Source: Oscillospiraceae bacterium (GTDB lineage Bacteria; Bacillota; Clostridia; Oscillospirales; CAG-382). Taken from it: DNA of 64,000 nt. The DNA lies in the NCBI GenBank assembly GCA_015064625.1, contig SVRW01000007.1, positions 19,794 through 83,793 of the forward strand, given 5' to 3'. Positions 3,005 through 53,377 of the stretch are shown here, piece after piece; the stretch's first letter is position 1, and each line of letters opens with the position of its first letter. The translations under genes and the position numbers were made by a program. Below the pieces are notes generated by a model. The model was not told the DNA's origin. It saw only the letters and a list, made by a program, of their open reading frames with translations, and did no database searches.

Positions 3005-4249
3005 TCATTGTTTAAAAAAGTAAAATTCATCAACGTCTGCACTATTAAAGTCGCCCGAAAAAACAAGCTTCAGCTCGTAAATTCCGTTTATTGAACGAAA
3101 TTCGGTTTTGGTTTCTACAAAGCTTTCAGAGGGAAGAACTGCCAATTCATTCACTAAAACCTCGTCTGCGTAAATCGAAACCTTGCATGGAAGGTCGTTT
3201 TTCATTCTGATGGCGAATATGTTTTCACCTTTGAAGTCTAAACTGCGGAAAACCATACTGTCAGAATCCTTTATTTCCCGCAAACAAAGATGGTTTTCGG
3301 ATTCTTCGTCCACAGCAATTCTTACGTTACCCGAAAGGAAACAGGCTGTGTTTGCGGGGATATGGTTCGAAGCTGATAAAGCATGTCCCAAAAAAGAGGT
3401 CTGCTTCACCTCGGGTATACTTCCGTCCTCATTTATGAAAATCGGCTCTGCGCAAACGTGTCTTGAAAATTCGAAGCCATGGGTTGAACGGTGATAAAAA
3501 ACGTACCATTGACCTTGAAAAAGCTCTATGGATCCATGATTGTTCCATACAAAAGGGTCGCATCCAAAATTATCAATAATAACCCCTTTGTATTCAAACT
3601 CTCCAAGGGGTTCATCTGAAACTGCATATCCGAGGCAAGTAGGACGGCCCCCATGTCTGTGGGTATCTGCAAAAAGATAATAATATTTACCGTTGATTTT
3701 CTTAACAGAGCTTCCTTCGTGAAACTCGTGCTTTTCTATGGTAAGAGGAGTTGTTACGGTATCTTTGATGATTTCCGTCATGTTGTCCTTAAGCTTGGCG
3801 GCGTGACACCAAGTGAGCTGTCCCCAATATAAATATGCCTGACCGTCATCGTCTATAAAAACAGCAGGGTCAATGCCCCAAACCCCTTCAATTGGTCCAA
3901 TGTCGGAAAAAGGCCCTGCAGGTGAGCTTGATACGGCAACACCGCATCTTCCGTCGGGCACGCAGTAGTAAAGATAATATTTTCCGTTTTTGTAAGCACA
4001 ATCGGGAGCATAGAGCGCACCGCAGTCCTTTGCCCATGTAGTATGGGCAAGTGAAAAAGCGACTCCATGATCCACCCAATTTATCATGTCATCAGAGGAA
4101 TAAACATGGTAAACGTCGCTACAATAGTCTTTTTTGCCAACGATATCAAATGAACCGTACAGATAGATTCTACCGTCTTCCCAAACGTGAGCCTCCGCAT
4201 CGGGAACAAAAATTTTGCTGTCAAGCAAGGGATTTTTTGTTTTTTTCAT
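3005..4249 (-). CDS. Glycoside hydrolase family 43 (beta-xylosidase / alpha-L-arabinofuranosidase type)
   Basis: Five-bladed-propeller GH43 hallmarks: FVPDAEAHVWEDGRIYLYGS, YAPDCAYKNGKYYLYY, GIDPAVFIDDDGQAYLYWG, HEGSSVKKINGKYYY. Confidence 0.8.
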   Translation of the reverse strand: MKKTKNPLLDSKIFVPDAEAHVWEDGRIYLYGSFDIVGKKDYCSDVYHVYSSDDMINWVDHGVAFSLAHTTWAKDCGALYAPDCAYKNGKYYLYYCVPDGRCGVAVSSSPAGPFSDIGPIEGVWGIDPAVFIDDDGQAYLYWGQLTWCHAAKLKDNMTEIIKDTVTTPLTIEKHEFHEGSSVKKINGKYYYLFADTHRHGGRPTCLGYAVSDEPLGEFEYKGVIIDNFGCDPFVWNNHGSIELFQGQWYVFYHRSTHGFEFSRHVCAEPIFINEDGSIPEVKQTSFLGHALSASNHIPANTACFLSGNVRIAVDEESENHLCLREIKDSDSMVFRSLDFKGENIFAIRMKNDLPCKVSIYADEVLVNELAVLPSESFVETKTEFRSINGIYELKLVFSGDFNSADVDEFYFFKQ

Positions 4250-8273: not shown

Positions 8274-10259
8274 ATGAAAGTTAATGCCACTCGTCGTGTT
8301 CTTGCGCTTGTTCTTGCTTCGCTGATGGTTCTTGGCGTTGTTACGCTTCTTTTTGAAGTTACAGCAGGTGCTGTGGTTACGAACTACGCCAAAGGAAACT
8401 CCTATACGTCAAGCGCGTTTTCAGTCGTTGCGGGTATGGGAGATACGGGAAATCTTCTTACTGACGGTGTTGTAGGTACTACGGAAGCTGTAGGCGTTAC
8501 AGTTGCATACGGCGGAACTAATAAAGTGCATACACTTGTTTTCGACCTCGGTGAAATTAAATACGATATCAAAACAATCAAATTCATGAACGTTCTCGTT
8601 TCGGGAAACAGAGGCTTTACTGATGATGCAGTTACTATTTCCGTTTCCAAAAACCTTGAAACAGTAGGAAACGTTACAAATACTTATACTCATGAGTCTG
8701 AGATTCAATATGGAACGGATTGTTTTAACTTCGTTTATGAGCTTAGTACGGAAGCAGTTGGACGTTACGTTCAGATAACTATGGTTACTGTTGATACTTA
8801 TGTTCTTTCTCTCAGTGAGATTGAAATCTGGGGAAGCGGAAACCCTGTTGTTGAAGACGAAGAGCCTGTTATTGTGAACTATTCAAACGGAATTTCCTAT
8901 TCTATTCCCGAGCTTAAATACCTTGAAGGATTTGAAGACAATGGGAAGCTTCTCACCGATGGTAACGTAGCGACGGTCGAAACAAAGGGAACATCTGTTG
9001 CATACGTAGGTACGGAGCATTTCTATACGTTGATTTTTGACCTTGGTGCAGTAAAGGATGATATAAAAACTGTTAAATTCAGAAACGTTTGTGTTGCAGG
9101 TAACAGGAACTTTGGAGCAGAACAAGTTGTTATTGCTGCTGCTGAATCTCTTGACAGTTCAGAGCCAATAGCCAGTGCTTACAAATATGAAAGAGTTCTC
9201 CAATCGGGAAGCACTTATTTCGATTTTGTTTATACTTTGGATTCTGAAGCAAGCGGAAGATACGTTTACATTACTATTTATTCGCCTTCTTACGTTCTTT
9301 CACTTAGTGAAATAGAAATCTGGAGCGCACCTCAGAGCAGCTCTGCGGTTGTAGTTCCTGATCCTATTGACCCCACGCCTAAATTTGACATCACTCTTTC
9401 ATGTGAAGAAAATTTCAAGGATAACGGACAGTTTGAGCTTCTTTGCACTGTAAATAATATTACTGCAACTTACGGAATTGTTGGGGTGGATTTCGTTGTA
9501 AGCTACAATACAGCCGCATTTACTCCTGCTTATCCTTCTGGAAATGATCTTTCCGCTAATTATATCAAAGTTGCTCCCATGGATGGAAAAAAGCTGCTTT
9601 GGGAAGATATCGGAACGTATTGCGACACTTCTGCAGGTAAGATTTATATGAGATTTGCTCATGTAAAAGCGGAAAATGGTGACGGTGCCAGAAATAACGG
9701 AGAGATTGTATTTAAAATTGTTTTCAATCCCAAGGTTTCCTATGGAACGTATAATTTTGAAGCAACAAGCTGTAAGGGAACAGACCCAGGTTCTTCAAAC
9801 TACAAAAAGCTTACAGAGGTTTATGCAAACGGTTCTTCCTGCTCAACCACAGCAATGCCCATTATAGACGAGCTTATTCCCACGGATAGTGGCATTACCG
9901 TATCTGATGGATATATTTACGGAGTTAAACCAGGTCTTACAAAGGATGAGCTTGCATCTATGTTCGAAGGTGAAGTTGCCGTTACTGAAAACGGAGTAAG
10001 TAAAAAGGTAGGTACGGGTTACGTTGTTACGTCAGAGGGCGGAGGCGAATCCGCAGTTGTAGTAATTTACGGTGACGTTGACGGCTCCGGTTCTATTGAT
10101 GCTACGGACTATCTTTCCGTTAAAAAGCATTTTCTTAAGCAGATAAACGTTGAAGGTGTTTACGCTATTGCGGCAAATACTGACCAAAAGGGAACTATTG
10201 ATGCTACAGACTATCTGAAAATCAAAAACCATTTCCTCGGTACAAATTTACTTTACTGA
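8274..10259 (+). CDS. Secreted scaffoldin-like protein: two F5/8 type C (discoidin/CBM32-like) domains, a cohesin-like module and a C-terminal dockerin
   Basis: N-terminal signal/TM. Two about 170-aa internal repeats, both ending in SLSEIEIWG/S. The segment FELLCTVNNITATYGIVGVDFVVSYNTAAF resembles cohesin. Dockerin duplicated EF-hand motif GDVDGSGSIDATDYLSVKKHFL ... NTDQKGTIDATDYLKIKNHFLG. Confidence 0.7.
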   Translation: MKVNATRRVLALVLASLMVLGVVTLLFEVTAGAVVTNYAKGNSYTSSAFSVVAGMGDTGNLLTDGVVGTTEAVGVTVAYGGTNKVHTLVFDLGEIKYDIKTIKFMNVLVSGNRGFTDDAVTISVSKNLETVGNVTNTYTHESEIQYGTDCFNFVYELSTEAVGRYVQITMVTVDTYVLSLSEIEIWGSGNPVVEDEEPVIVNYSNGISYSIPELKYLEGFEDNGKLLTDGNVATVETKGTSVAYVGTEHFYTLIFDLGAVKDDIKTVKFRNVCVAGNRNFGAEQVVIAAAESLDSSEPIASAYKYERVLQSGSTYFDFVYTLDSEASGRYVYITIYSPSYVLSLSEIEIWSAPQSSSAVVVPDPIDPTPKFDITLSCEENFKDNGQFELLCTVNNITATYGIVGVDFVVSYNTAAFTPAYPSGNDLSANYIKVAPMDGKKLLWEDIGTYCDTSAGKIYMRFAHVKAENGDGARNNGEIVFKIVFNPKVSYGTYNFEATSCKGTDPGSSNYKKLTEVYANGSSCSTTAMPIIDELIPTDSGITVSDGYIYGVKPGLTKDELASMFEGEVAVTENGVSKKVGTGYVVTSEGGGESAVVVIYGDVDGSGSIDATDYLSVKKHFLKQINVEGVYAIAANTDQKGTIDATDYLKIKNHFLGTNLLY

Positions 10260-19495: not shown

Positions 19496-19596
19496 GCGAA
19501 GCTCCACTTCGCAATGAAATCCACTTTCAGTGGATGAAATCGCTCAAGGCGGTGAAATTCACCTTCGGTGAATGAAATGTTGCAAAGCAACGTTGA
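19496..19596 (+). repeat. Tandem array of five mini-hairpins with an 18-20-nt period
   Basis: GCGAAG-ctcca-CTTCGC; ATCCACT-ttc-AGTGGAT; ATCGC-tcaag-GCGGT; ATTCACC-ttc-GGTGAAT; ATGTTGC-aaa-GCAACGT. Units are separated by GAA. Stem sequences differ but pairing is maintained. Confidence 0.85.
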
Positions 19597-19681: not shown

Positions 19682-20539
19682 ATGAAAATGAATTTTACCA
19701 AAATGCATGGATTGGGGAACGATTATATTTACGTTTATTGCCCTGATAAAGAGCCGTCTGATCCGAATGAAATATCAAGACTTGTATCAAAACGACATTT
19801 TTCCATTGGAAGCGATGGACTTGTTCTTATCTGTTCTTCAAAAATTGCAGATGCGAAAATGCGTATGTTCAATGCCGACGGAAGCGAAGGTGGAATGTGC
19901 GGTAACGCTGTAAGGTGCGTTGGAAAATATCTGTACGATTTTGGCATAATAAAAAAGAAAGAGGTTTCCATAGAAACTCTTTCGGGGATAAAGTATCTGA
20001 CATTAAATATTGGTGATGACGGATTGGTTGAAAGCGTTTCCGTGGATATGGGAAAAGCAAGCTTTGATCCCAAGGTTATTCCCACGGTGTTTGAGGGAGA
20101 GGCTATTGATAAGATCATCACGGTAAAAGGAAAAGAATATAAAATAACTGCGCTGTCTACCGGTAGTGCTCACTGTGTTATCTTTGAAAAGGATGTTTTT
20201 TCTCTTGATATATCTGAAATCGGTCCTTTGTTCGAAAATCACGAAGTGTTCCCGCAACGTGTAAATACCGAATTTATTGAATGTACAGATGAAACAAACA
20301 TCAATATGCGAGTTTGGGAAAAGGGGAGCGGTGAGACGTTGGCTTGCGGAACGGGTGCTTGCGCTTCCGTAGCATCATCTGTTCGCCTTGGAAAATGTAA
20401 AGCAGGCGTTCCCGTTACGGTTCACCTGATAGGCGGAGAGCTTGAAATTATCTGTAATGAGGATTATTCAATAATTATGAGAGGGAAAGCGGAAACGGTT
20501 TTCCACGGCGTTATTGATATCCCCGATGAATTGATGTGA
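19682..20539 (+). CDS. dapF: Diaminopimelate epimerase
   Basis: FTKMHGLGNDYIY, FNADGSEGGMCGNAVRC and GETLACGTGACA (both catalytic Cys motifs). Confidence 0.92.
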   Translation: MKMNFTKMHGLGNDYIYVYCPDKEPSDPNEISRLVSKRHFSIGSDGLVLICSSKIADAKMRMFNADGSEGGMCGNAVRCVGKYLYDFGIIKKKEVSIETLSGIKYLTLNIGDDGLVESVSVDMGKASFDPKVIPTVFEGEAIDKIITVKGKEYKITALSTGSAHCVIFEKDVFSLDISEIGPLFENHEVFPQRVNTEFIECTDETNINMRVWEKGSGETLACGTGACASVASSVRLGKCKAGVPVTVHLIGGELEIICNEDYSIIMRGKAETVFHGVIDIPDELM

Positions 20540-20553
20540 AAATAATTTAATTT

Positions 20554-20600
20554 ATGGGGCGTTGCACTGATTTGGTTAGTGTAACAGCCCCATGAGTTTT
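20554..20600 (+). terminator. Probable dapF terminator
   Basis: ATGGGGC...GCCCCAT stem, extendable to about 14 bp with one bulge, followed by GAGTTTTAT. Confidence 0.55.
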
Positions 20601-20727
20601 ATATGATTGTTCAACGCTTTAAAATAGCTTGTCGTTTACAAAAATTAAAATCAAATTCTGCAACATATTACGTTATATTTTTACACGTTATGAAATGTTG
20701 CGAGTGTATTTAGTTGTTTTATTTACA

Positions 20728-20795
20728 CAAGCCTATTATGCTGATGATATATATAATTTTACCGATTGGTAAGGTTGCACAAACCAATCGGTAAA
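20728..20795. repeat. 68-bp repeat, copy A, directly 3' of the yafQ stop
   Basis: CAAGCCTATTATGCTGATGATATATATAATTTTACCGATTGGTAAGGTTGCACAAACCAATCGGTAAA. Contains a 13-bp perfect hairpin (TTTACCGATTGGT / ACCAATCGGTAAA). Confidence 0.95.
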
Positions 20796-20797
20796 AA

Positions 20798-21070
20798 TTA
20801 AAACAAATCGCTATGAGTTCCTGTGCGAGAAAGAATCAATACAACTTCTGATTCGTCTATGCGGTATATCAATAACCAATCAGGCAATATATGACATTCT
20901 CTGAATCCGACATAATTTCCTGTCAACGAATGATCTCTATACTTTTCTTCCAATGGAATGTTGCTTGCTAAATTTTCTACTACTTTGTCAAGCAAATCCA
21001 AGTCATATCCTCGTTTCGATATAACCTTCAAGTCTTTTTTGAAGCGATTGGATAATACTATGTCAAGCAT
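20798..21070 (-). CDS. yafQ: Type II toxin, YafQ family (RelE superfamily mRNA interferase)
   Basis: FKKDLKVISKRGYDLDLL...YRDHSLTGNYVGFRECHILPDWLLIYRIDE...LSRTGTHSDLF is the YafQ signature. Confidence 0.88.
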   Translation of the reverse strand: MLDIVLSNRFKKDLKVISKRGYDLDLLDKVVENLASNIPLEEKYRDHSLTGNYVGFRECHILPDWLLIYRIDESEVVLILSRTGTHSDLF

Positions 21071-21359
21071 TTTCTAACACATCTTTTACAGCAGATTTAA
21101 AATCAGGATATCGCTTATATTTTTCGGGATGAGCTTTCATTTCGTAATATTCATTCATCGCTGCTATTGTATCTGCGTTAGGAGTTCTTGTGGATATATC
21201 AAAAGGAATTCTTTGTTCTCTTACCACGGTTTTAGCAAAGATATTAAAAGCTGCACTAACGGAAATCCCAATTTCATTGCAGAAAGCATCGAACGCTTTT
21301 TTTGTTTCTTCGTCAAGGCGAATATTAACATTTGTCTGCGCCATGCGTTTTTCCACCAC
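21063..21359 (-). CDS. dinJ: Type II antitoxin, RelB/DinJ family
   Basis: NVNIRLDEETKKAFDAFCNEIGISVSAAFNIFAKTVVREQRIPF (DinJ RHH). 8-nt overlap with yafQ. Confidence 0.88.
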   Translation of the reverse strand: MVEKRMAQTNVNIRLDEETKKAFDAFCNEIGISVSAAFNIFAKTVVREQRIPFDISTRTPNADTIAAMNEYYEMKAHPEKYKRYPDFKSAVKDVLENA

Positions 21360-21370
21360 CTTTCTATTAT

Positions 21371-21399
21371 ATTATATATAATTTGTATGTATTTGTCAA
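21371..21399 (-). promoter_or_regulatory. Sigma-A promoter of dinJ-yafQ
   Basis: On the minus strand: TTGACA (21399-21394), 17-nt spacer, TATAAT (21376-21371). Confidence 0.7.
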
Positions 21400-21543
21400 T
21401 ATAATTTATGGCGTTTGAAAAACAATTTATAAAATTTTTTTAAATCGGTTGCTTTTTGCGGTTTCAAAAAGCTTCATTTTCTCTTATCTATTCTCTCTCA
21501 TTTTTTATCTGTTCATTCAATAAAAGATTTATTGAATAAGCAT

Positions 21544-21609
21544 CAAGCCTATTATGCTGATGATATATAATTTTACCGATTGGTAAGGTTGCACAAACCA
21601 ATCGGTAAA
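21544..21609. repeat. 66-bp repeat, copy B, directly 3' of the HTH gene stop
   Basis: Identical to copy A except for one TA unit fewer in the (TA)n tract. Confidence 0.95.
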
Positions 21610-21616
21610 TAGTAAT

Positions 21617-21850
21617 TCAATGACTTTCAGGACCAAACTCTACTTTTAATTGCATTCCCATCCCTTCAGCAAGTCGTATTAAGGTACGTAAGGAAGGGTT
21701 AGCGTTTCCCTTTTCCAACTTACTGATATCACCTTGGGCAATTCCTGTAATCTTGGACAATTCCTTTTGTGTCATTCCTGAAGCGTGTCTTGCCTCAATC
21801 AATGCTTGTACAATTTCGTCTACTTCAACAGTATAGGTTGTGTTACTCAT
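21617..21850 (-). CDS. XRE-family helix-turn-helix protein (HigA/antitoxin- or regulator-like)
   Basis: MTQKELSKITGIAQGDISKLEKGNANPSLRTLIRLAEGMG. Start taken at MSNTTY (21850), which overlaps the upstream stop by 8 nt (ATGAGTAA). The ORF track's longer version begins at 21910. Confidence 0.8.
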   Translation of the reverse strand: MSNTTYTVEVDEIVQALIEARHASGMTQKELSKITGIAQGDISKLEKGNANPSLRTLIRLAEGMGMQLKVEFGPESH

Positions 21851-22061
21851 CGGTTCCAATGCTCTCCCAATCGATGTCTTCTGCATCAACGTAACCGCTT
21901 TTTTCTGCATCCTCTATTTTCTTTGCTTCCTCTGCGGTAACTTTAGTAAAATCCGGATCCCAAGCAAGAACTAATTTTTTGATAAACTCGTAAGCAAACG
22001 CCTTGTCTGCTTCTGGAAGTACATCCATTAAGCGTGCTGCTTCAATTACAATACTTGACAT
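21843..22061 (-). CDS. Small acidic protein (72 aa), candidate antitoxin/adaptor of a three-gene TA module
   Basis: AGGAGGAG RBS about 7 nt upstream of the ATG at 22061. Acidic C-terminus (EDAEKSGYVDAEDIDWESIGTDE). No family recognised. Confidence 0.6.
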   Translation of the reverse strand: MSSIVIEAARLMDVLPEADKAFAYEFIKKLVLAWDPDFTKVTAEEAKKIEDAEKSGYVDAEDIDWESIGTDE

Positions 22062-22074
22062 ATAAGACTCCTCC

Positions 22075-22344
22075 TTATTTGTATATATCTCCGCGATTGC
22101 CAATATCGATTACAAAGCTGATCTCTACCGTTTCTTCATTTTCGTGTCTATAGATAATTCTCCACGATCCAACACGGAGTCGTTTCCTTCCGTCGTTGTA
22201 GCCCTGCATCGTTTTGATATCTCCAACTGGCGGATTATAAGTCAATCCCGTAATAGCATCACGGATTCTACCAACAGATTTTTTGTCTAATTTTTACAGA
22301 AATTTCAGTGCATCTTTCGAATATCTGATTTTAATTTCATTCAT
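22075..22344 (-). pseudogene. RelE/ParE-family toxin gene interrupted by an in-frame TAA at codon 17
   Basis: My minus-strand translation: MNEIKIRYSKDALKFL*KLDKKSVGRIRDAITGLTYNPPVGDIKTMQGYNDGRKRLRVGSWRIIYRHENEETVEISFVIDIGNRGDIYK. The stop is at 22294-22296. The LRVGxxRIIY...IGxRxDIY core is typical of RelE/ParE. Missing from the ORF track because of the stop. Confidence 0.85.
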
Positions 22345-22387
22345 CTATTATTCTCCGTGAAAATGAAATATTTTATTCTACACCTGT

Positions 22388-22416
22388 ATTATATAGGATT
22401 TATCCTATTTTGCCAA
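22388..22416 (-). promoter_or_regulatory. Promoter with embedded palindromic operator for the three-gene TA module
   Basis: On the minus strand: TTGGCA (22416-22411), 17-nt spacer, TATAAT (22393-22388). The spacer holds the palindrome TAGGATAAATCCTA (22394-22407). Confidence 0.65.
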
Positions 22417-22448
22417 CGTTTTTTTGAAAATCAAAATCTCAATTTCTT

Positions 22449-23486
22449 TCATATAATCAGCATCGCGTCGCCGAAGCTGAAGAAGCGGTACTGCTTTTCC
22501 ACGGCTTCGCGGTATGCGTTCATGGCGTTGTCATAGCCTGCGAAGGCGGATATGAGCATAAGCAAGGTGCTTTGGGGAAGGTGAAAGTTAGTAATCAGCG
22601 CATCGATACCCTTGAAGGTATAGCCTGGGTATATAAATATTCCCGTATCTCCGCTATATGCATGGATAACGCGGTTTTCATCAGCTACGGACTCAAGGGT
22701 TCTGCAAGAAGTTGTTCCTACAGCAATTACTCGTCCGCCTTTTTTGCGGACGTTGTTTATTTTGTCAGCGGCTTCTTGTGTGACTTCGATATACTCTTTA
22801 TGCATTTTATGATCTAAAATATTTTCTTCCTTTACAGGTCGGAAAGTACCAAGACCAACGTGGAGTAAGATTTCAACCACCTCAACGCCTTTTTCTTTTA
22901 TCCTTGCGAGAAGCTCGTTTGTGAAGTGAAGTCCCGCAGTTGGTGCGGCGGCAGAGCCTTTATGGAGGGCATAGACTGTTTGATAGCGTTCTTTGTCCTC
23001 CAATTTTTTCGTAATGTATGGGGGAAGGGGCATAGCTCCTATTTTATCAAGAACGGAATAAAATTCTGTATCCATATTGAATTCGATAAGGCGAACGCCA
23101 TCTTCGATAACGTTCAATATCTTTCCCGAAAGACCTTCGGGATATTCAATAACGTCTCCGATTCTTGCCTTTTTGCCAGGCTTGACGAGACATTGCCATA
23201 CGTTACCCGATACTTTTTCCCTTGATAAAAGCACAGTTTCAATTTCACCCGCACGACGTGGATTTTTCCCGAAGATTCGCGCAGGAATAACCCTTGTGTT
23301 ATTGATAACAAGGCAATCTCCTTCTTTTAGATAATCGAGAATATCGAAAAAATGCTTATGCTCACGATTTCCCGTTTCTTTGTTAATAACGAGCAATCGG
23401 GAGTTATCTCTTTTTTCTGCAGGTGATTGAGCGATAAGCTCCTCGGGTAAAAAATAATCGTAGGTTGAAAGCTTTGTAAAGTCCAT
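22449..23486 (-). CDS. queA: S-adenosylmethionine:tRNA ribosyltransferase-isomerase
   Basis: [31 protein letters not shown]...[13 protein letters not shown] and [10 protein letters not shown]. Confidence 0.92.
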
Positions 23487-23659
23487 AAAATAAACCGTTC
23501 CTATATATAAAAAGTAATAGCAATATTGGCAAACACAAAATACAATAATAATGTGCCGAAAGTATTATATAGCAAAACCTTTAAAAAAGCAATAGCAAAA
23601 AGCGAGGCTTTTTTGAAGTGATTTTTCGGTGAGTAAATAATAAAGGAGTATAGTGTTTT

Positions 23660-32877: not shown

Positions 32878-33963
32878 ATGAAGACCAAATTTAAAAATAC
32901 TCTTTTATCTGCACTCATTTTATCCACGTCATTGAGTGGCTTTGCTTTGGGTGTTTCCGCTGAAACGGCGACGGAAACACAGTACATAAAGCTATACGAA
33001 AACTACACTGTGGGAGAATTTCTTGAAAGATATAAATTAAATCTCCCTGAAGGTGTTTCTGCTGATTTGGAAAAAGCATTGGGTAGCGGATTTAGCGCAA
33101 AGGACGCTCTTGGCGACTATATAACTGTGCTTTCGGGAGATGCGGACGGTGACGGTTTGGTAAGCTCCACGGACTATCTTAAACTGAAAAAACACATTCT
33201 GAAAGATATTGAACTTGACGGTGCATTTTTAGAAGCTGCGGACGTTAATGAGGACGGAGCTGTGGACAGTACGGACCTTCTCAGAGTAAAATCCAGCTTT
33301 TTAGGCGAATACAATATGAATTTGTCCATAAAATCAAAGTTGGATTCATATAGCTACTATTCTGCCACATCGTTAGCAACGTTGGAAAAAGAAACAATGG
33401 AATATCCTGATTCTGCATTTTTGCTCAAAATACGAATTGACGGTGTGGATTCATCGGTTTCAAGATTAGGCAAAGAGCTTGATTTGAAAAAGTATGTAGA
33501 TCCCGATTATAATTCCATGCAAGTATCTTTTACAATAACTGAGATTCTATCCGAAAGCGGAAAAGATAAATTTACTGTTGGCCAAAAACTCACAGCGGGT
33601 CAGGATTTTGTACATCTCATGCCAAACGGTAAAGGAACGTATCAACTTATAACAAGCCGATTTAACCCTCAGCTTCCATTAACGGAAGTGGGTAGGGAAT
33701 ACATTGTTTTAATGAGAGATTTGAGGTTTAGAAATTCAAATGGGGTGTTTACTGAGGAGAGAACGGAAAATCTTCCTTATTCCTTATATGGTATTGCGCC
33801 CACGTGGACTAAAAATCTTAACTCTATAGATATGTTTGCGGATATGTCCTTTAGTGAAATTTATCAGGATTTGGTAGAAGAAATTCAAGGGAAATACTGT
33901 GTAGATGAAAGCATCCCTGACGAAAGAACCAAATTTTTGATTCCCACATGGTGTTTAACTTAA
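32878..33963 (+). CDS. Secreted dockerin-containing protein with a C-terminal domain of unknown function
   Basis: Signal peptide. Dockerin GDADGDGLVSSTDYLKLKKHIL ... DVNEDGAVDSTDLLRVKSSFLG near the N-terminus. Confidence 0.7.
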   Translation: MKTKFKNTLLSALILSTSLSGFALGVSAETATETQYIKLYENYTVGEFLERYKLNLPEGVSADLEKALGSGFSAKDALGDYITVLSGDADGDGLVSSTDYLKLKKHILKDIELDGAFLEAADVNEDGAVDSTDLLRVKSSFLGEYNMNLSIKSKLDSYSYYSATSLATLEKETMEYPDSAFLLKIRIDGVDSSVSRLGKELDLKKYVDPDYNSMQVSFTITEILSESGKDKFTVGQKLTAGQDFVHLMPNGKGTYQLITSRFNPQLPLTEVGREYIVLMRDLRFRNSNGVFTEERTENLPYSLYGIAPTWTKNLNSIDMFADMSFSEIYQDLVEEIQGKYCVDESIPDERTKFLIPTWCLT

Positions 33964-51202: not shown

Positions 51203-53377
51203 TTATGAGTAGAGGTCATACTTGCCAAGGAAGTAGTTTTTAATCTGGAGATAATCTGTGGAATTTATTGTGCCGTCGTCGTTTGTATCCGAGGCGGTAA
51301 TAAATACTCCTTCAAGGACAAGCTCGCCTAAAAATGCTTTTTTTAGTCTGAGATAGTCTGTTGCATCAATTTTTCCATTTCCGTCCGTGTCACCGTTTAT
51401 TATAGCTGTGTAGTATTTTCCGTTCGTAGTTTCAATAACACATCCCGTACCTATGATGTCTTTGTTATCTAACTCTTTGCCGTCCTTGGTAATTGATTTG
51501 ATTACGACGCCGTATTTTTCGAAATAAGACAGCTTGAACGTGTTTACGTCCGTGTTCGCGGGAATATTTGGCATGGTGTTGTATTTTGCGTTGATATAAA
51601 GAGGATCTTTTACTTCTTTGGGCAGTCTTTCTGTTGTGAATTTGTTTTGGCTTGCGTATGTTGTTGCTGTGCAAATTAAAGGGCATACGATGATAAACGA
51701 GGGATTGGCTACAATTTCAAATGATTCTTCGTCTATATTGTATCCCAAGGCGTATTCGCCTATTTTGACATTGGAGGATTTTACAGTGACCCTATTTAAA
51801 GAAGGACAATGAAAGAATGCATATTCAGATATGGTTTGAAGATTTTTCGGAATAACAACTTCTGAAAGAGATGTACATAAAGAGAATGCACCTGTTTTTA
51901 TATTCACTAAAAATTCGGGTAAAATTACGGACGTAAGGGATATACATGCAGCGAATGACCCTTCACCGATTGTATTTATAAGGGGAGAAAACTCTATTTT
52001 CTCAAGGGATACACAAGCAGAAAATGCAAAGTCGCTTATTGATTCAAGGCTTTCGGGAAAAGATGCTGCTTTTAATTGAACCTGACCTGCAAAAAGCGAA
52101 TCTGCCATTAAGGTAGTTCCTTCTTTTATTTTGCAGTATTCAAGAGAGAAGTTATCTTTTACAGCCACGGCGTATTTGCCTATATACAGAACTCCGTCCT
52201 CCCAATCGTCCGGAGTGTTGTAATTTTTGGTTCCGTCAAAGGCATATGCACCGATTTTGGTTATATTATCCCTGAGGCTGTATACGTAAAGGTTTGAACA
52301 ACCGTAAAACGCTGCTTCGCCTATTTGGTTCACGGATCTGGGAATGGTGAAATCCGAAGGTAAGTCACAGTTATAGAAGGCGTAGCCTTTTATTATAAAA
52401 ATACTTCCGTCGTTGGGAATAGTGGAGTTTTTGCATCCCAAGACAACATATTTTGAATTTTTTTCTATAAGCGTGTTGTTACTTGCATAGAAATACTTGC
52501 TTGACGAATCAACTGTTATGGATGATATATTGACACAATCTATAAACGCACCTTCGCTTATTTTTAAGATATTAGCGGGGATATTAAGGCTTGTGAGGGA
52601 CGAAACGCCTGCAAAAGCAAAGGAATCTATGGAATAAGTGTTGGTATTTACGTCACCTTCCGGGAAAGTGCTTCCTTCGCAGGCGGCAATTATATAGTTG
52701 GTTTCTTTGTCAATAAGGCAATTTGACAAGGCTTCGTAATAAGTGTTATCACTATTGACGATGATTTTTTTAAGTGAAGGACAATATGCGGTTATTCCAC
52801 TTCCAATATAAACTACTGATAAAGGAATATTTAATGATTTTATTCCTGTGCCCATAAATGCAAAATCGCCTATGTACATAACCCCTGTGGGTAGCAAAAG
52901 GGAAGTTAACGATTCACAGCTTTCAAAGGCGTATGCACCGATATATTCCACCGTTGGTGCAATAGACACGGAGGTAAGATTGATGCAATATGCAAACGCT
53001 TGATCTCCAATACTTTGAACTCCGCTTTTGATTGTTATGCTTTTAATAGATTCATAGCTTTCTATCCATGGAGCAAATTCTCCTGCTTCGGCACTGTAGT
53101 CATACATATAACCGCTTCCGGAAATAGTCAGATTACCTGCTGACGATAAGCTCCATGAAACGTTTTCTCCGCAAGTGCCGGAAGCACCGACGTTTTCAAC
53201 TGCGAAATCGTTGGAAATCAAGTTTACCTTTTTCGTTGGAAATTTACGCTTTTCATAAAAAGATGAAATATTTGTTTCTTCTTGTGGGACATTATCCTCA
53301 GCCGTTACGGTCAGGGATGATGCTACTGATAAAAGCAAACAAACGCTGATTACTAAAGAAAGTATTTTTTTGCTCAT
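51203..53377 (-). CDS. Secreted BspA-type leucine-rich repeat protein with a C-terminal dockerin
   Basis: Signal peptide and a long LRR region (IGDQAFAYCINLTSVSI etc.). Terminal dockerin GDTDGNGKIDATDYLRLKKAFLG ... DTNDDGTINSTDYLQIKNYFLG. Confidence 0.8.
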   Translation of the reverse strand: MSKKILSLVISVCLLLSVASSLTVTAEDNVPQEETNISSFYEKRKFPTKKVNLISNDFAVENVGASGTCGENVSWSLSSAGNLTISGSGYMYDYSAEAGEFAPWIESYESIKSITIKSGVQSIGDQAFAYCINLTSVSIAPTVEYIGAYAFESCESLTSLLLPTGVMYIGDFAFMGTGIKSLNIPLSVVYIGSGITAYCPSLKKIIVNSDNTYYEALSNCLIDKETNYIIAACEGSTFPEGDVNTNTYSIDSFAFAGVSSLTSLNIPANILKISEGAFIDCVNISSITVDSSSKYFYASNNTLIEKNSKYVVLGCKNSTIPNDGSIFIIKGYAFYNCDLPSDFTIPRSVNQIGEAAFYGCSNLYVYSLRDNITKIGAYAFDGTKNYNTPDDWEDGVLYIGKYAVAVKDNFSLEYCKIKEGTTLMADSLFAGQVQLKAASFPESLESISDFAFSACVSLEKIEFSPLINTIGEGSFAACISLTSVILPEFLVNIKTGAFSLCTSLSEVVIPKNLQTISEYAFFHCPSLNRVTVKSSNVKIGEYALGYNIDEESFEIVANPSFIIVCPLICTATTYASQNKFTTERLPKEVKDPLYINAKYNTMPNIPANTDVNTFKLSYFEKYGVVIKSITKDGKELDNKDIIGTGCVIETTNGKYYTAIINGDTDGNGKIDATDYLRLKKAFLGELVLEGVFITASDTNDDGTINSTDYLQIKNYFLGKYDLYS

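Follow-up and report, generated by a model that had tools for sequence, protein, structure and literature searches.

Between the housekeeping genes queA and dapF, in a 64-kb stretch of contig SVRW01000007.1 (assembly GCA_015064625.1, Oscillospiraceae bacterium; 64,000 nucleotides, hereafter the window), lie two small toxin–antitoxin (TA) operons, each followed directly by a copy of the same hairpin-containing repeat, and it is this repeat and the units that it closes that concern us here. Read along the minus strand, the order is queA, a ParE/RelE-like gene, a 72-aa open reading frame (ORF), an XRE gene, repeat copy B, a promoter, relB/dinJ, yafQ and copy A, after which the convergent dapF is reached (Table 1). 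The islet thus has the position that an earlier reading of the letters alone (the original prediction) had given it, and the stretch between the copies is likewise made up of a promoter, dinJ and yafQ, the promoter being perfect and the two products matching the Pfam families RelB and YafQ_toxin. With these two families, an 8-nt gene overlap and a single consensus promoter, the unit is, by its sequence features, a type II toxin–antitoxin pair.

Table 1. Features of the queA–dapF interval, in the order in which the minus strand is read (HP1, hairpin; P, right arm)
Feature	Position	Strand	Remarks
queA	22449..23486	-	array head and putative target gene; Pfam Queuosine_synth (identical contigs)
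Candidate attL core in queA 3' end	22456..22481	-	TTCAGCTTCG-GCGACG-CGATGCTGAT; dyad imperfect (8/10), with the Asp-codon GA at its centre
Cassette 1 promoter	22388..22416	-	TTGGCA-17-TATAAT; same promoter in L079 as TTGACAAAATAGGATAAATCC
Cassette 1 toxin gene, ParE/RelE-like	22075..22344	-	in-frame TAA at codon 17 (22294-22296), from translation
Cassette 1 middle gene, 72 aa	21843..22061	-	no Pfam match; conserved in L034, L079
Cassette 1 XRE-type helix-turn-helix gene	21617..21850	-	putative antitoxin; Pfam HTH_3 7e-12
Copy B, cassette 1 3' module	21544..21610	-	HP1 21572-21609, AT spacer, P arm and core centre 21544-21571
Internal junction, right half	21529..21543	-	ATGCTTATTCAATAA; reads M-L-I-Q-stop, a queA-like end
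Cassette 2 promoter	21371..21399	-	perfect TTGACA-17-TATAAT; region conserved in window-type cassettes of L067, L084
dinJ/relB antitoxin gene, cassette 2	21063..21344	-	Pfam RelB 1.6e-16
yafQ toxin gene, cassette 2	20798..21070	-	Pfam YafQ_toxin 2.7e-34
Copy A, cassette 2 3' module	20728..20797	-	HP1 20757-20796, spacer and P arm 20728-20756; A/B identity ends ..GGCTTG
Terminal flank past copy A	20595..20727	-	TGTAAATAAAAC...; not recognisably queA-like; no blastn homology to relatives
dapF	19682..20539	+	convergent housekeeping gene closing the variable interval; Pfam DAP_epimerase; homologous in L079-L083

In the operon next to queA (cassette 1), the toxin gene is, judging from its translation, inactivated by the premature TAA, while the 72-aa and XRE genes stay intact. 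The same toxin gene is intact, with 89 codons' worth of protein (89 aa) and a ParE_toxin match of 1.9e-8, in the related loci L034 and L079 (loci in other genomes carry L numbers). In the window and in these two loci, an acidic protein of 72–88 aa without a Pfam family stands between the ParE-like toxin and the XRE protein, making a three-gene module. All near-identical strains have the arrangement of the window, as seen from identical-protein look-ups of YafQ, DapF and XRE, and are therefore uninformative on gain or loss.

The two copies are 66/68-nt direct repeats on the minus strand that differ, as had been claimed, by a single TA unit: aligned on that strand, they are identical from TTTACCG... 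to ...GGCTTG apart from this one indel. Direct reading of the region 19800–22800 joined two direct-repeat pieces (D1 and D2) into this one repeat, whose 34-nt hairpin core and 26-nt distal part each have two exact matches in the window, with 0 expected from 100 shuffles; the two places named in the original prediction are thus the sole exact matches. With two copies in 64 kb, both within the array, the repeat does not behave as a dispersed one of the REP/MITE kind (repetitive extragenic palindrome, miniature inverted-repeat transposable element). Both stems are perfect and close a 12-nt loop, but the predicted 13 bp hold for copy B (arms 21572–21584/21597–21609), copy A having 14 bp (arms 20757–20770/20783–20796, 100% complementary). 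The fold energies of the two copies are -22.7 and -23.9 kcal/mol as RNA (z = -4.4 and -4.6), and -13.5 and -15.4 kcal/mol under DNA parameters (z about -5.8). Copy A lies 2 nt from the yafQ stop (20798–20800) and copy B 7 nt from the XRE stop (21617–21619), in agreement with the predicted distances.

Neither copy is a canonical intrinsic terminator, and here, too, the original prediction stands: downstream of the stem, the minus strand reads AAAAUUAUAUAU instead of a U-tract, and a terminator scan of both strands flagged nothing at either copy. Moreover, the stem is flanked on both strands by a 5' U-run and a 3' A-run, which is the reverse of a terminator. The same scan predicted no terminator elsewhere for either TA operon of the window. 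Between copy B and the dinJ promoter, a palindromic stem (GCTTTTTGCGGTTTCAAAAAGC, 21451–21472) was recognised as a terminator on the plus strand only, antisense to dinJ-yafQ; a resemblance of the segment 21400–21543 to the queA terminator of the relative L080, seen by eye, was not supported by blastn. No Rfam family was found for the repeat; the only match, to RT-17, falls below threshold (23 bits vs a gathering score of 40.4, E 0.37) and was taken as chance. A candidate promoter inside the repeat (TTACCA-17-TATCAT, 9/12) was also discarded, as its spacing is not kept in other species.

A scan of one genome per species for two exact 10-nt arms around a free 12-nt loop returned 27 loci, where about one would be expected by chance (our own estimate, not a tool output). 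Nine of these, in Proteobacteria, Melainabacteria, Planctomycetes and other groups, were discounted as palindromes close to promoters and without relation to the repeat. The other 18 come from different metagenome-assembled genomes (MAGs) of ruminant and human-gut Clostridia, with one locus per assembly at exact-arm stringency, and share a TTGTGCAATCTT-like loop as well as about 45 further nucleotides, AAAATCTTATATAGCATCAGCATCG-TAGAyG-CGATGTTTAT. Besides these at least 18 gut Clostridia MAGs, the module is also present on further metagenome contigs. A metagenome scan with the hairpin pattern gave only five operator-like, unrelated matches, IMG/VR gave zero matches to the hairpin or the P arm (defined below), and the phage and plasmid collections yielded a chance 24-nt match or yafQ coding matches without the module.

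In every cassette, the module starts 0–10 nt past the stop codon of the cargo, and the repeat does indeed flank other small cassettes in relatives: across at least 18 gut Clostridia MAGs and further metagenome contigs it stands behind five TA-like cargo types. These are a general RelB-YafQ type, whose YafQ has 64% protein identity to that of the window; the window type of RelB-YafQ (L039/L084); ParE/72–88 aa/XRE, of which L034 carries the intact version of cassette 1; Gp49 (HigB-like) with XRE (L032, L084); and DUF4160 followed by DUF2442-HTH_59 (L020, L025, L031, L032). In L067 the stem of the module is kept, while its 12-nt loop is replaced by 3 nt.

We were able to follow the pairing of this hairpin, termed HP1, over 24 distinct arm pairs, in which the loops were swapped for a fixed tetraloop to align the registers. 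Pairing is found in 97.1% of the cells and 7 of the 13 pairs are changed on both sides, values that 0 of 500 shuffles reached; a compensatory example is TTTACC/GGTAAA, which becomes TTCGCC/GGCGAA in L084. The stem bases CC.AT.GG are invariant, and the stem persists across loop lengths from 3 to 13 nt. From these substitutions, HP1 appears to be under selection to pair. It could serve as a structural or accessory element of a recombination site, as a transcript 3'-end or insulator hairpin, or as both. A shared 3' untranslated-region element, put forward in the original prediction as the alternative to a cassette, may accordingly be retained as a second role, since homologous operons in relatives and prophages have ordinary terminators at this place; the cassette reading itself is supported.

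The units sit at one particular gene. With queA immediately upstream on the same strand were found L017–20, 23, 28, 30, 32, 35, 37, 38, 41, 42, 67–70 and 84–87 as well as the window; among loci with visible upstream context the lone exception is L025, where unannotated small ORFs and copies of the queA end lie upstream and queA was not seen in the 4 kb examined. The downstream genes vary by locus (miaA, tgt, a metallo-beta-lactamase-fold gene, DUF4932, dapF). In addition, the conserved stretch past the hairpin copies the queA end (F-S-F-G-D-A-M-F/L-I) over a core of about 30 bp, such that a profile built from the post-hairpin stretch also matches genuine queA ends, including that of the window (nhmmer, 22480–22455, E 0.0034; copy B itself scores E 5e-15 with the hp1 profile and E 4.7e-7 with the core profile). 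The distal junctions can be read as alternative queA termini, namely DAMFIE*, DAMLIV* and DAMFIK*. The core has a 10-6-10 dyad, with the queA form TTCAGCTTCG-GCGAyG-CGATGCTGAT and the cassette-end form ATCAGCATCG-TAGAyG-CGATGyTkAT, and is centred on the conserved Asp codon, at its invariant GA. The reading frames of queA are complete at the array loci. Cores of queA-like sequence mark queA itself, the internal junctions and the distal boundary of the arrays, as direct attachment-site (att) repeats beside an intact target gene. Upstream of queA, lysine riboswitches were found in two related MAGs (L018 762–937 (-), L020 342–518 (-)), where the window, L071 and L084 have a divergent dapA; the queA–dapA interval of the window (23487–23659) gave no such match.

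For the boundary analysis, 12–13 loci with the general dinJ-yafQ cassette, one per species, were aligned on the central GA. At the left boundary (attL), between-species identity climbs from about 0.45 to 0.85–0.89 at the GA and stays high through GCGATGTTTATATGTTGAAAATC..AACATAAAATGCGCATAA into the promoter, and at the right boundary (attR) it remains high as far as the GA and the queA-like codons, then drops to a background of 0.25–0.33 within about 20 nt. As conservation switches at the central GA on both sides, the cassette consists of a left arm (P'), the promoter, the genes, HP1 and a right arm (P); judged from these alignments, cassette sequence begins and ends at the central GA. Wherever the general cassette abuts queA, the gene ends FIC*/FIY* followed by TGAAAA, whereas queA ends of the GATGATATATAAGAAA type, among them ..CTGATTATATGAAAGAAAT of the window, precede other cassette types. 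By this comparison, where cassettes abut, the resident queA owes its last codons to the element. In the window itself, a match to the left arm common to several cassette types (L020, L025, L032, L079, L084) extends over the last queA codons (..GDAMLII*) and the AAGAAAT behind them, which are probably of the same origin. The A/B identity in the window ends 2 nt beyond the 6-nt core centre. The original prediction had placed recombination at the repeat; the repeat does bound the cassette, but the crossover, as located from these boundaries, is not at the hairpin and lies about 28 nt downstream of it, within the dyad that mimics queA and closes the repeat distally.

The distribution of the cassettes differs from that of their surroundings. 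Between species, the dinJ-yafQ cassette has a mean nucleotide identity of 0.878 (0.82–0.95) and the adjacent queA (550 nt) one of 0.666 (0.56–0.76), the cassette being the more similar in 66 of 66 pairs, a contrast that we read as a signature of horizontal transfer. Cassettes are also shuffled in order between genomes. The ParE/XRE cassette is followed by the general-type dinJ-yafQ in L034 and L079 and by the window type in the window, and the Gp49/XRE cassette is followed by the general type in L032, where DUF4160/DUF2442 comes next, and by the window type in L084. Besides, the queA–dapF interval was compared across close relatives whose QueA is 83–89% identical to that of the window (L079–L083): L079 has both cassettes, with cassette 1 being 83.6% identical to that of the window vs 79.7% for queA; in L080, L081 and L082 the interval is free of TA cassettes; and L083 retains, directly past the queA stop, a 25-nt remnant of the yafQ 3' end as a scar. 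The L080 queA ends M-F-I-Q-stop, comparable with the M-L-I-Q-stop of the internal junction in the window.

The module and the TA genes are separate entities. Prophage relB-yafQ pairs with 70–76% amino acid identity to that of the window carry ordinary terminators and neither HP1 nor core; the XRE gene of L079 has an ordinary terminator and lacks HP1, and the yafQ of this locus keeps only a truncated start of HP1; in L071–L078 the array looks decayed. These prophage pairs are opposite-strand morons between the small terminase gene and an HNH endonuclease gene in a gut prophage family (L049–L066, e.g. L057 9727–10276). Unlike the identical pair in the window, the modules inside other arrays (L032, L084) differ from each other, and the two modules of the window were probably made identical by recent gene conversion or duplication. 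As direct repeats of 66 bp, these modules would also permit RecA-dependent loop-out of the dinJ-yafQ unit. Five cargo types, a constant position at queA, sharp boundaries, a transfer signal and gain and loss among relatives together support the original idea that dinJ-yafQ is a repeat-bounded cassette.

We therefore consider it probable that the repeats are the conserved 3' ends of small mobile TA cassettes stacked at queA, with the recombinase supplied from elsewhere. Each cassette runs from a P' left arm, which provides replacement last codons of queA, through a sigma-70 promoter and a TA-type operon to HP1 directly past the stop codon and a P right arm of about 28 nt. P and P' are the two halves of a dyad-symmetric site of about 30 bp which mimics the end of queA. 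Recombination with the queA end, at or beside the invariant GA, would involve either the cassette in circular form or a larger element bearing it; such an integration would keep queA intact and displace the earlier queA end downstream, and repeated insertions would give a head-to-tail stack. In the window, two cassettes are stacked, ParE-pseudogene/72-aa/XRE and then DinJ-YafQ. The cassettes hold only a promoter and two to three small TA-type genes, with neither integrase nor transfer genes; since they encode no recombinase, the enzyme would have to come from elsewhere, acting in trans or in cis, and as its source we favour a larger integrative element specific to queA, in whose company the cassettes would travel in the manner of cis-mobilizable elements (CIMEs). 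As a lead, the central GA would fit a clostridial large serine recombinase of the TndX type, and a tyrosine recombinase may be considered as well. The anatomy, conservation and boundaries of the cassettes are shown, as are their spread between species, their shuffling and their gain or loss among relatives; site-specific recombination, the supply of an enzyme from elsewhere and any function of HP1 are inferred, the mechanism with moderate confidence.

Several observations weigh against this proposal. The case for recombination is an anatomical one, no recombinase having been identified: no recombinase, transposase or HUH family was found by Pfam among the ORFs of at least 170 aa in the window; no recombinase family occurs in the precomputed Pfam lists of the flanks of related arrays, up to 10 kb on each side (L001, L067, L071, L084); and crude searches of the MAG loci, with regular-expression motifs and with phmmer using an integrase fragment and a Recombinase-domain protein from prophages, gave no recombinase. 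An excised circle or an empty-site read was not seen either. Most of the genomes are incomplete MAGs, which makes 'one locus per genome' and 'no integrase' weak negatives beyond the flanks examined. The symmetry of the core dyad is incomplete (median about 8/10) and in part inherent in the queA coding sequence, and the flank after copy A in the window is not recognisably a queA end. As for HP1, 20 of the 24 sequences were found by the perfect 10-nt-arm pattern, so that the covariation rests on the stem base and seven variants, and one HP1-like copy (L084 unit 0) has direct instead of inverted arms. Part of the identity contrast might come from stronger constraint on the TA genes, which would not, however, account for 95% vs 72% at the nucleotide level. 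Furthermore, the internal junction may represent either the P' arm of cassette 2 or a native end that was displaced, so that the order of events is ambiguous.

Three other explanations were weighed against the stacking of mobile cassettes. The repeat might be no more than a shared RNA 3'-end element (a terminator without U-tract, a stabiliser or a processing hairpin), duplicated with its flanks in a vertically inherited TA islet. The constant place of HP1 just past the stop codon, the canonical terminators that stand there in the homologous operons of L079 and the prophage morons, the want of another predicted terminator for either window operon and the high stability of the stem as RNA would all suit such an element. 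Nevertheless, the flanking U- and A-runs are those of a reversed terminator, unflagged by the scan, conservation extends about 45 nt past the hairpin into the queA-mimicking core and has sharp boundaries, and the module is common to five unrelated cargo types and occurs only at queA. The cassettes are, moreover, far more similar than queA in all 66 pairs, their order is shuffled and close relatives are without them, and we regard this explanation as quite improbable. The array might also have been built mainly by homologous recombination or gene conversion between the 66-bp module and the queA-like stretch of about 40 bp, with no dedicated recombinase. Recent homogenisation of this kind is suggested by the identity of the window copies over 66 nt, compared with the differing modules in L032 and L084; direct repeats of this length support RecA-dependent duplication or deletion, and L037 shows a longer duplication comprising the queA end and a GC-rich element. 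However, queA is only 56–76% identical between species and the downstream flanks are unrelated, so that two-sided homologous exchange across species is unlikely; the boundaries fall at the same nucleotide in 12–13 species, and the 10-6-10 dyad at the junction is built like a recombinase core. As the main builder of the arrays we think this process unlikely.

Lastly, recombination might proceed on a single strand, with HP1 as the recognised structure, like attC in integrons or the subterminal hairpins of HUH transposases, and with the queA-like core as the cleavage or target site. Compensatory changes keep the stem paired, the stem survives the change of its loop from 12 to 3 nt with CC.AT.GG invariant, the hairpin is stable under DNA parameters, and its distance to the crossover is nearly fixed at about 28 nt, all of which would be expected of a recognised hairpin. 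Yet non-coding units with the same core have HP1 missing or degenerate (L025), HP1 lies 75–100 nt from the core in unit 0 (described below) of L020, L025 and L032 and is inverted in L032, attC core boxes and extrahelical bases are absent, and no IntI or HUH gene was found nearby. We hold this pathway to be improbable too, and retain the stacking of mobile cassettes at queA as the preferred reading.

Among known systems, CIMEs and the tandem accretion at att sites of integrative and conjugative or integrative and mobilizable elements (ICEs, IMEs) in Firmicutes resemble the queA arrays in that integrase and transfer genes are lacking, attL and attR derive from the 3' end of the target gene, and that gene stays intact (PMC5704250). 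CIMEs are described as decay products of ICEs and IMEs (PMC5704250), whereas the queA units are compact (about 0.75–0.9 kb), uniform across at least 12 species, and equipped with a promoter, one TA-type operon and a dedicated 3' hairpin module. Full-text literature searches found neither queA as a described integration target nor a paper linking queA with such cassettes.

Integron cassettes and the dif modules of Acinetobacter appear closest in logic, though the defining features of both were looked for and not found. To our knowledge, integrons are essentially absent from Firmicutes. Integron attC cassettes likewise consist of one operon with a hairpin-bearing recombination site directly 3' of the ORF, and integron arrays share the common orientation, the junctions that are hybrid between neighbours and the frequency of TA modules as cargo (PMC4889954, PMC11023631). 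The array at hand is headed by queA instead, and IntI and attI were not found (window ORFs of at least 170 aa; flanks of L001, L067, L071 and L084). The attC-like logic of the original prediction therefore holds for the same-orientation array of ORFs with 3' sites, but the site is not an attC: neither repeat strand has RYYYAAC/GTTRRRY (R/L) boxes, the stem of 13–14 bp is perfect and has no extrahelical bases, the cassettes have strong promoters of their own, and the crossover lies about 28 nt past the hairpin.

The Acinetobacter dif modules (pdif, XerC/XerD) are small, often TA pairs, without a recombinase of their own, and have short dyad sites of the 11-6-11 type and shuffle between replicons (PMC6449649, PMC13141974). 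They are plasmid-borne, between dif-like sites of alternating orientation, whereas the queA sites are chromosomal direct repeats mimicking the queA 3' end. With a dif consensus taken from general knowledge, no dif-type core was found in the window junctions, and dif-likeness was rejected. The sole XerD-arm-like 11-mer (one mismatch) is in the P' arm of the general cassette, without a properly spaced partner, and at up to two mismatches the window holds 49 such 11-mers. In Tn5397, the clostridial large serine recombinase TndX cuts at GA dinucleotides (PMC3672683), and an invariant GA also marks the dyad centre at which cassette and flank meet in the present clostridial hosts; Tn5397 carries its own enzyme, whereas no serine recombinase was found near any array. 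IS200/IS605 elements (HUH) differ as well, since the cassettes have no tnpA/tnpB, have a hairpin at one end only, and show a queA-like repeat of about 30 bp at both boundaries.

The arrays also hold units other than TA cassettes. Counting TA cassettes, the same-orientation arrays have two units in the window, three in L032 and two in L084, plus non-coding units. A non-coding 'unit 0' of about 190 nt with an HP1-like hairpin lies between queA-like cores in L020, L025, L032 and L084, the hairpin being inverted in L032 and direct-armed in L084. Another non-coding unit of about 130 nt, AATACTGCGTT...CGTAGGTAACTACG...CTCCTAATCAGCA, occurs in L071 (4047–4170), in L032 (~3880–4010) and in L018 (after 2860), and three tandem copies (AATACTGCGTT...CTCCTAATCAGCA) are present in L025 (2650–2960); it always stands past a queA-like stop, and its opposite strand has an arginine-rich small ORF. 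A third, GC-rich unit of about 50 nt with cloverleaf-like nested hairpins, GTAGGGGCGAAC..GTTCGCCCGCG.GCGTTC..GAACGCCCCTAC, sits just past queA-like ends in L020, L022, L030, L035 and L037, in the last of these twice, once behind the queA stop and once behind the distal junction, and behaves as a non-coding array unit of its own across species. None of these three kinds has an Rfam match in the related loci. In L025, the array is preceded by about 2.5 kb of small ORFs that end in a degenerate HP1 and core, in a locus cut off before any integrase; these upstream ORFs have no Pfam family, marginal PHROG matches only and no viral relatives in IMG/VR, and their position hints at a larger element that may use the same site.

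A bolder proposal can be made, namely that gut Clostridia have a cassette-capture system of their own, in which a dedicated recombinase would recognise both the HP1 stem and the queA-mimicking core, and the queA 3' end would serve as a platform at which TA or defence cassettes with their own promoters, together with small non-coding units, are stockpiled and exchanged. Functionally, the system would be a counterpart of the integron that arose independently, and we put it forward as a speculation that is more likely wrong than right. If the stacking of mobile cassettes at queA is confirmed, it would represent a compact and widespread way of transferring TA modules between species of ruminant and human-gut Clostridia without a recombinase of their own, and would explain the small variable islet beside queA in many genomes. 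For annotation, it would mean that the last codons of queA may be element-derived and that queA-like fragments downstream are att scars, not noise. The att site of about 30–50 bp with its conserved hairpin would then be a handle for finding the cognate recombinase, which could serve as a site-specific integration tool in hard-to-engineer organisms, and integron-like cassette stockpiling in Firmicutes would become testable.

The window as a whole is chromosomal DNA of an ordinary kind, from a spore-forming member of the Clostridia with dockerins. About 100 nt upstream of dapF, a Gut-1 RNA (RF01706) was detected at 19512–19583 on the plus strand (57.7 bits vs a gathering score of 50, E 5e-10). 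Dockerin-bearing proteins and glycoside hydrolases of the families GH25, GH43 and GH77 are encoded at 8274–10259, 32878–33963 and 51203–53377, and point to a member of the Clostridia with fibre degradation of the cellulosome type.

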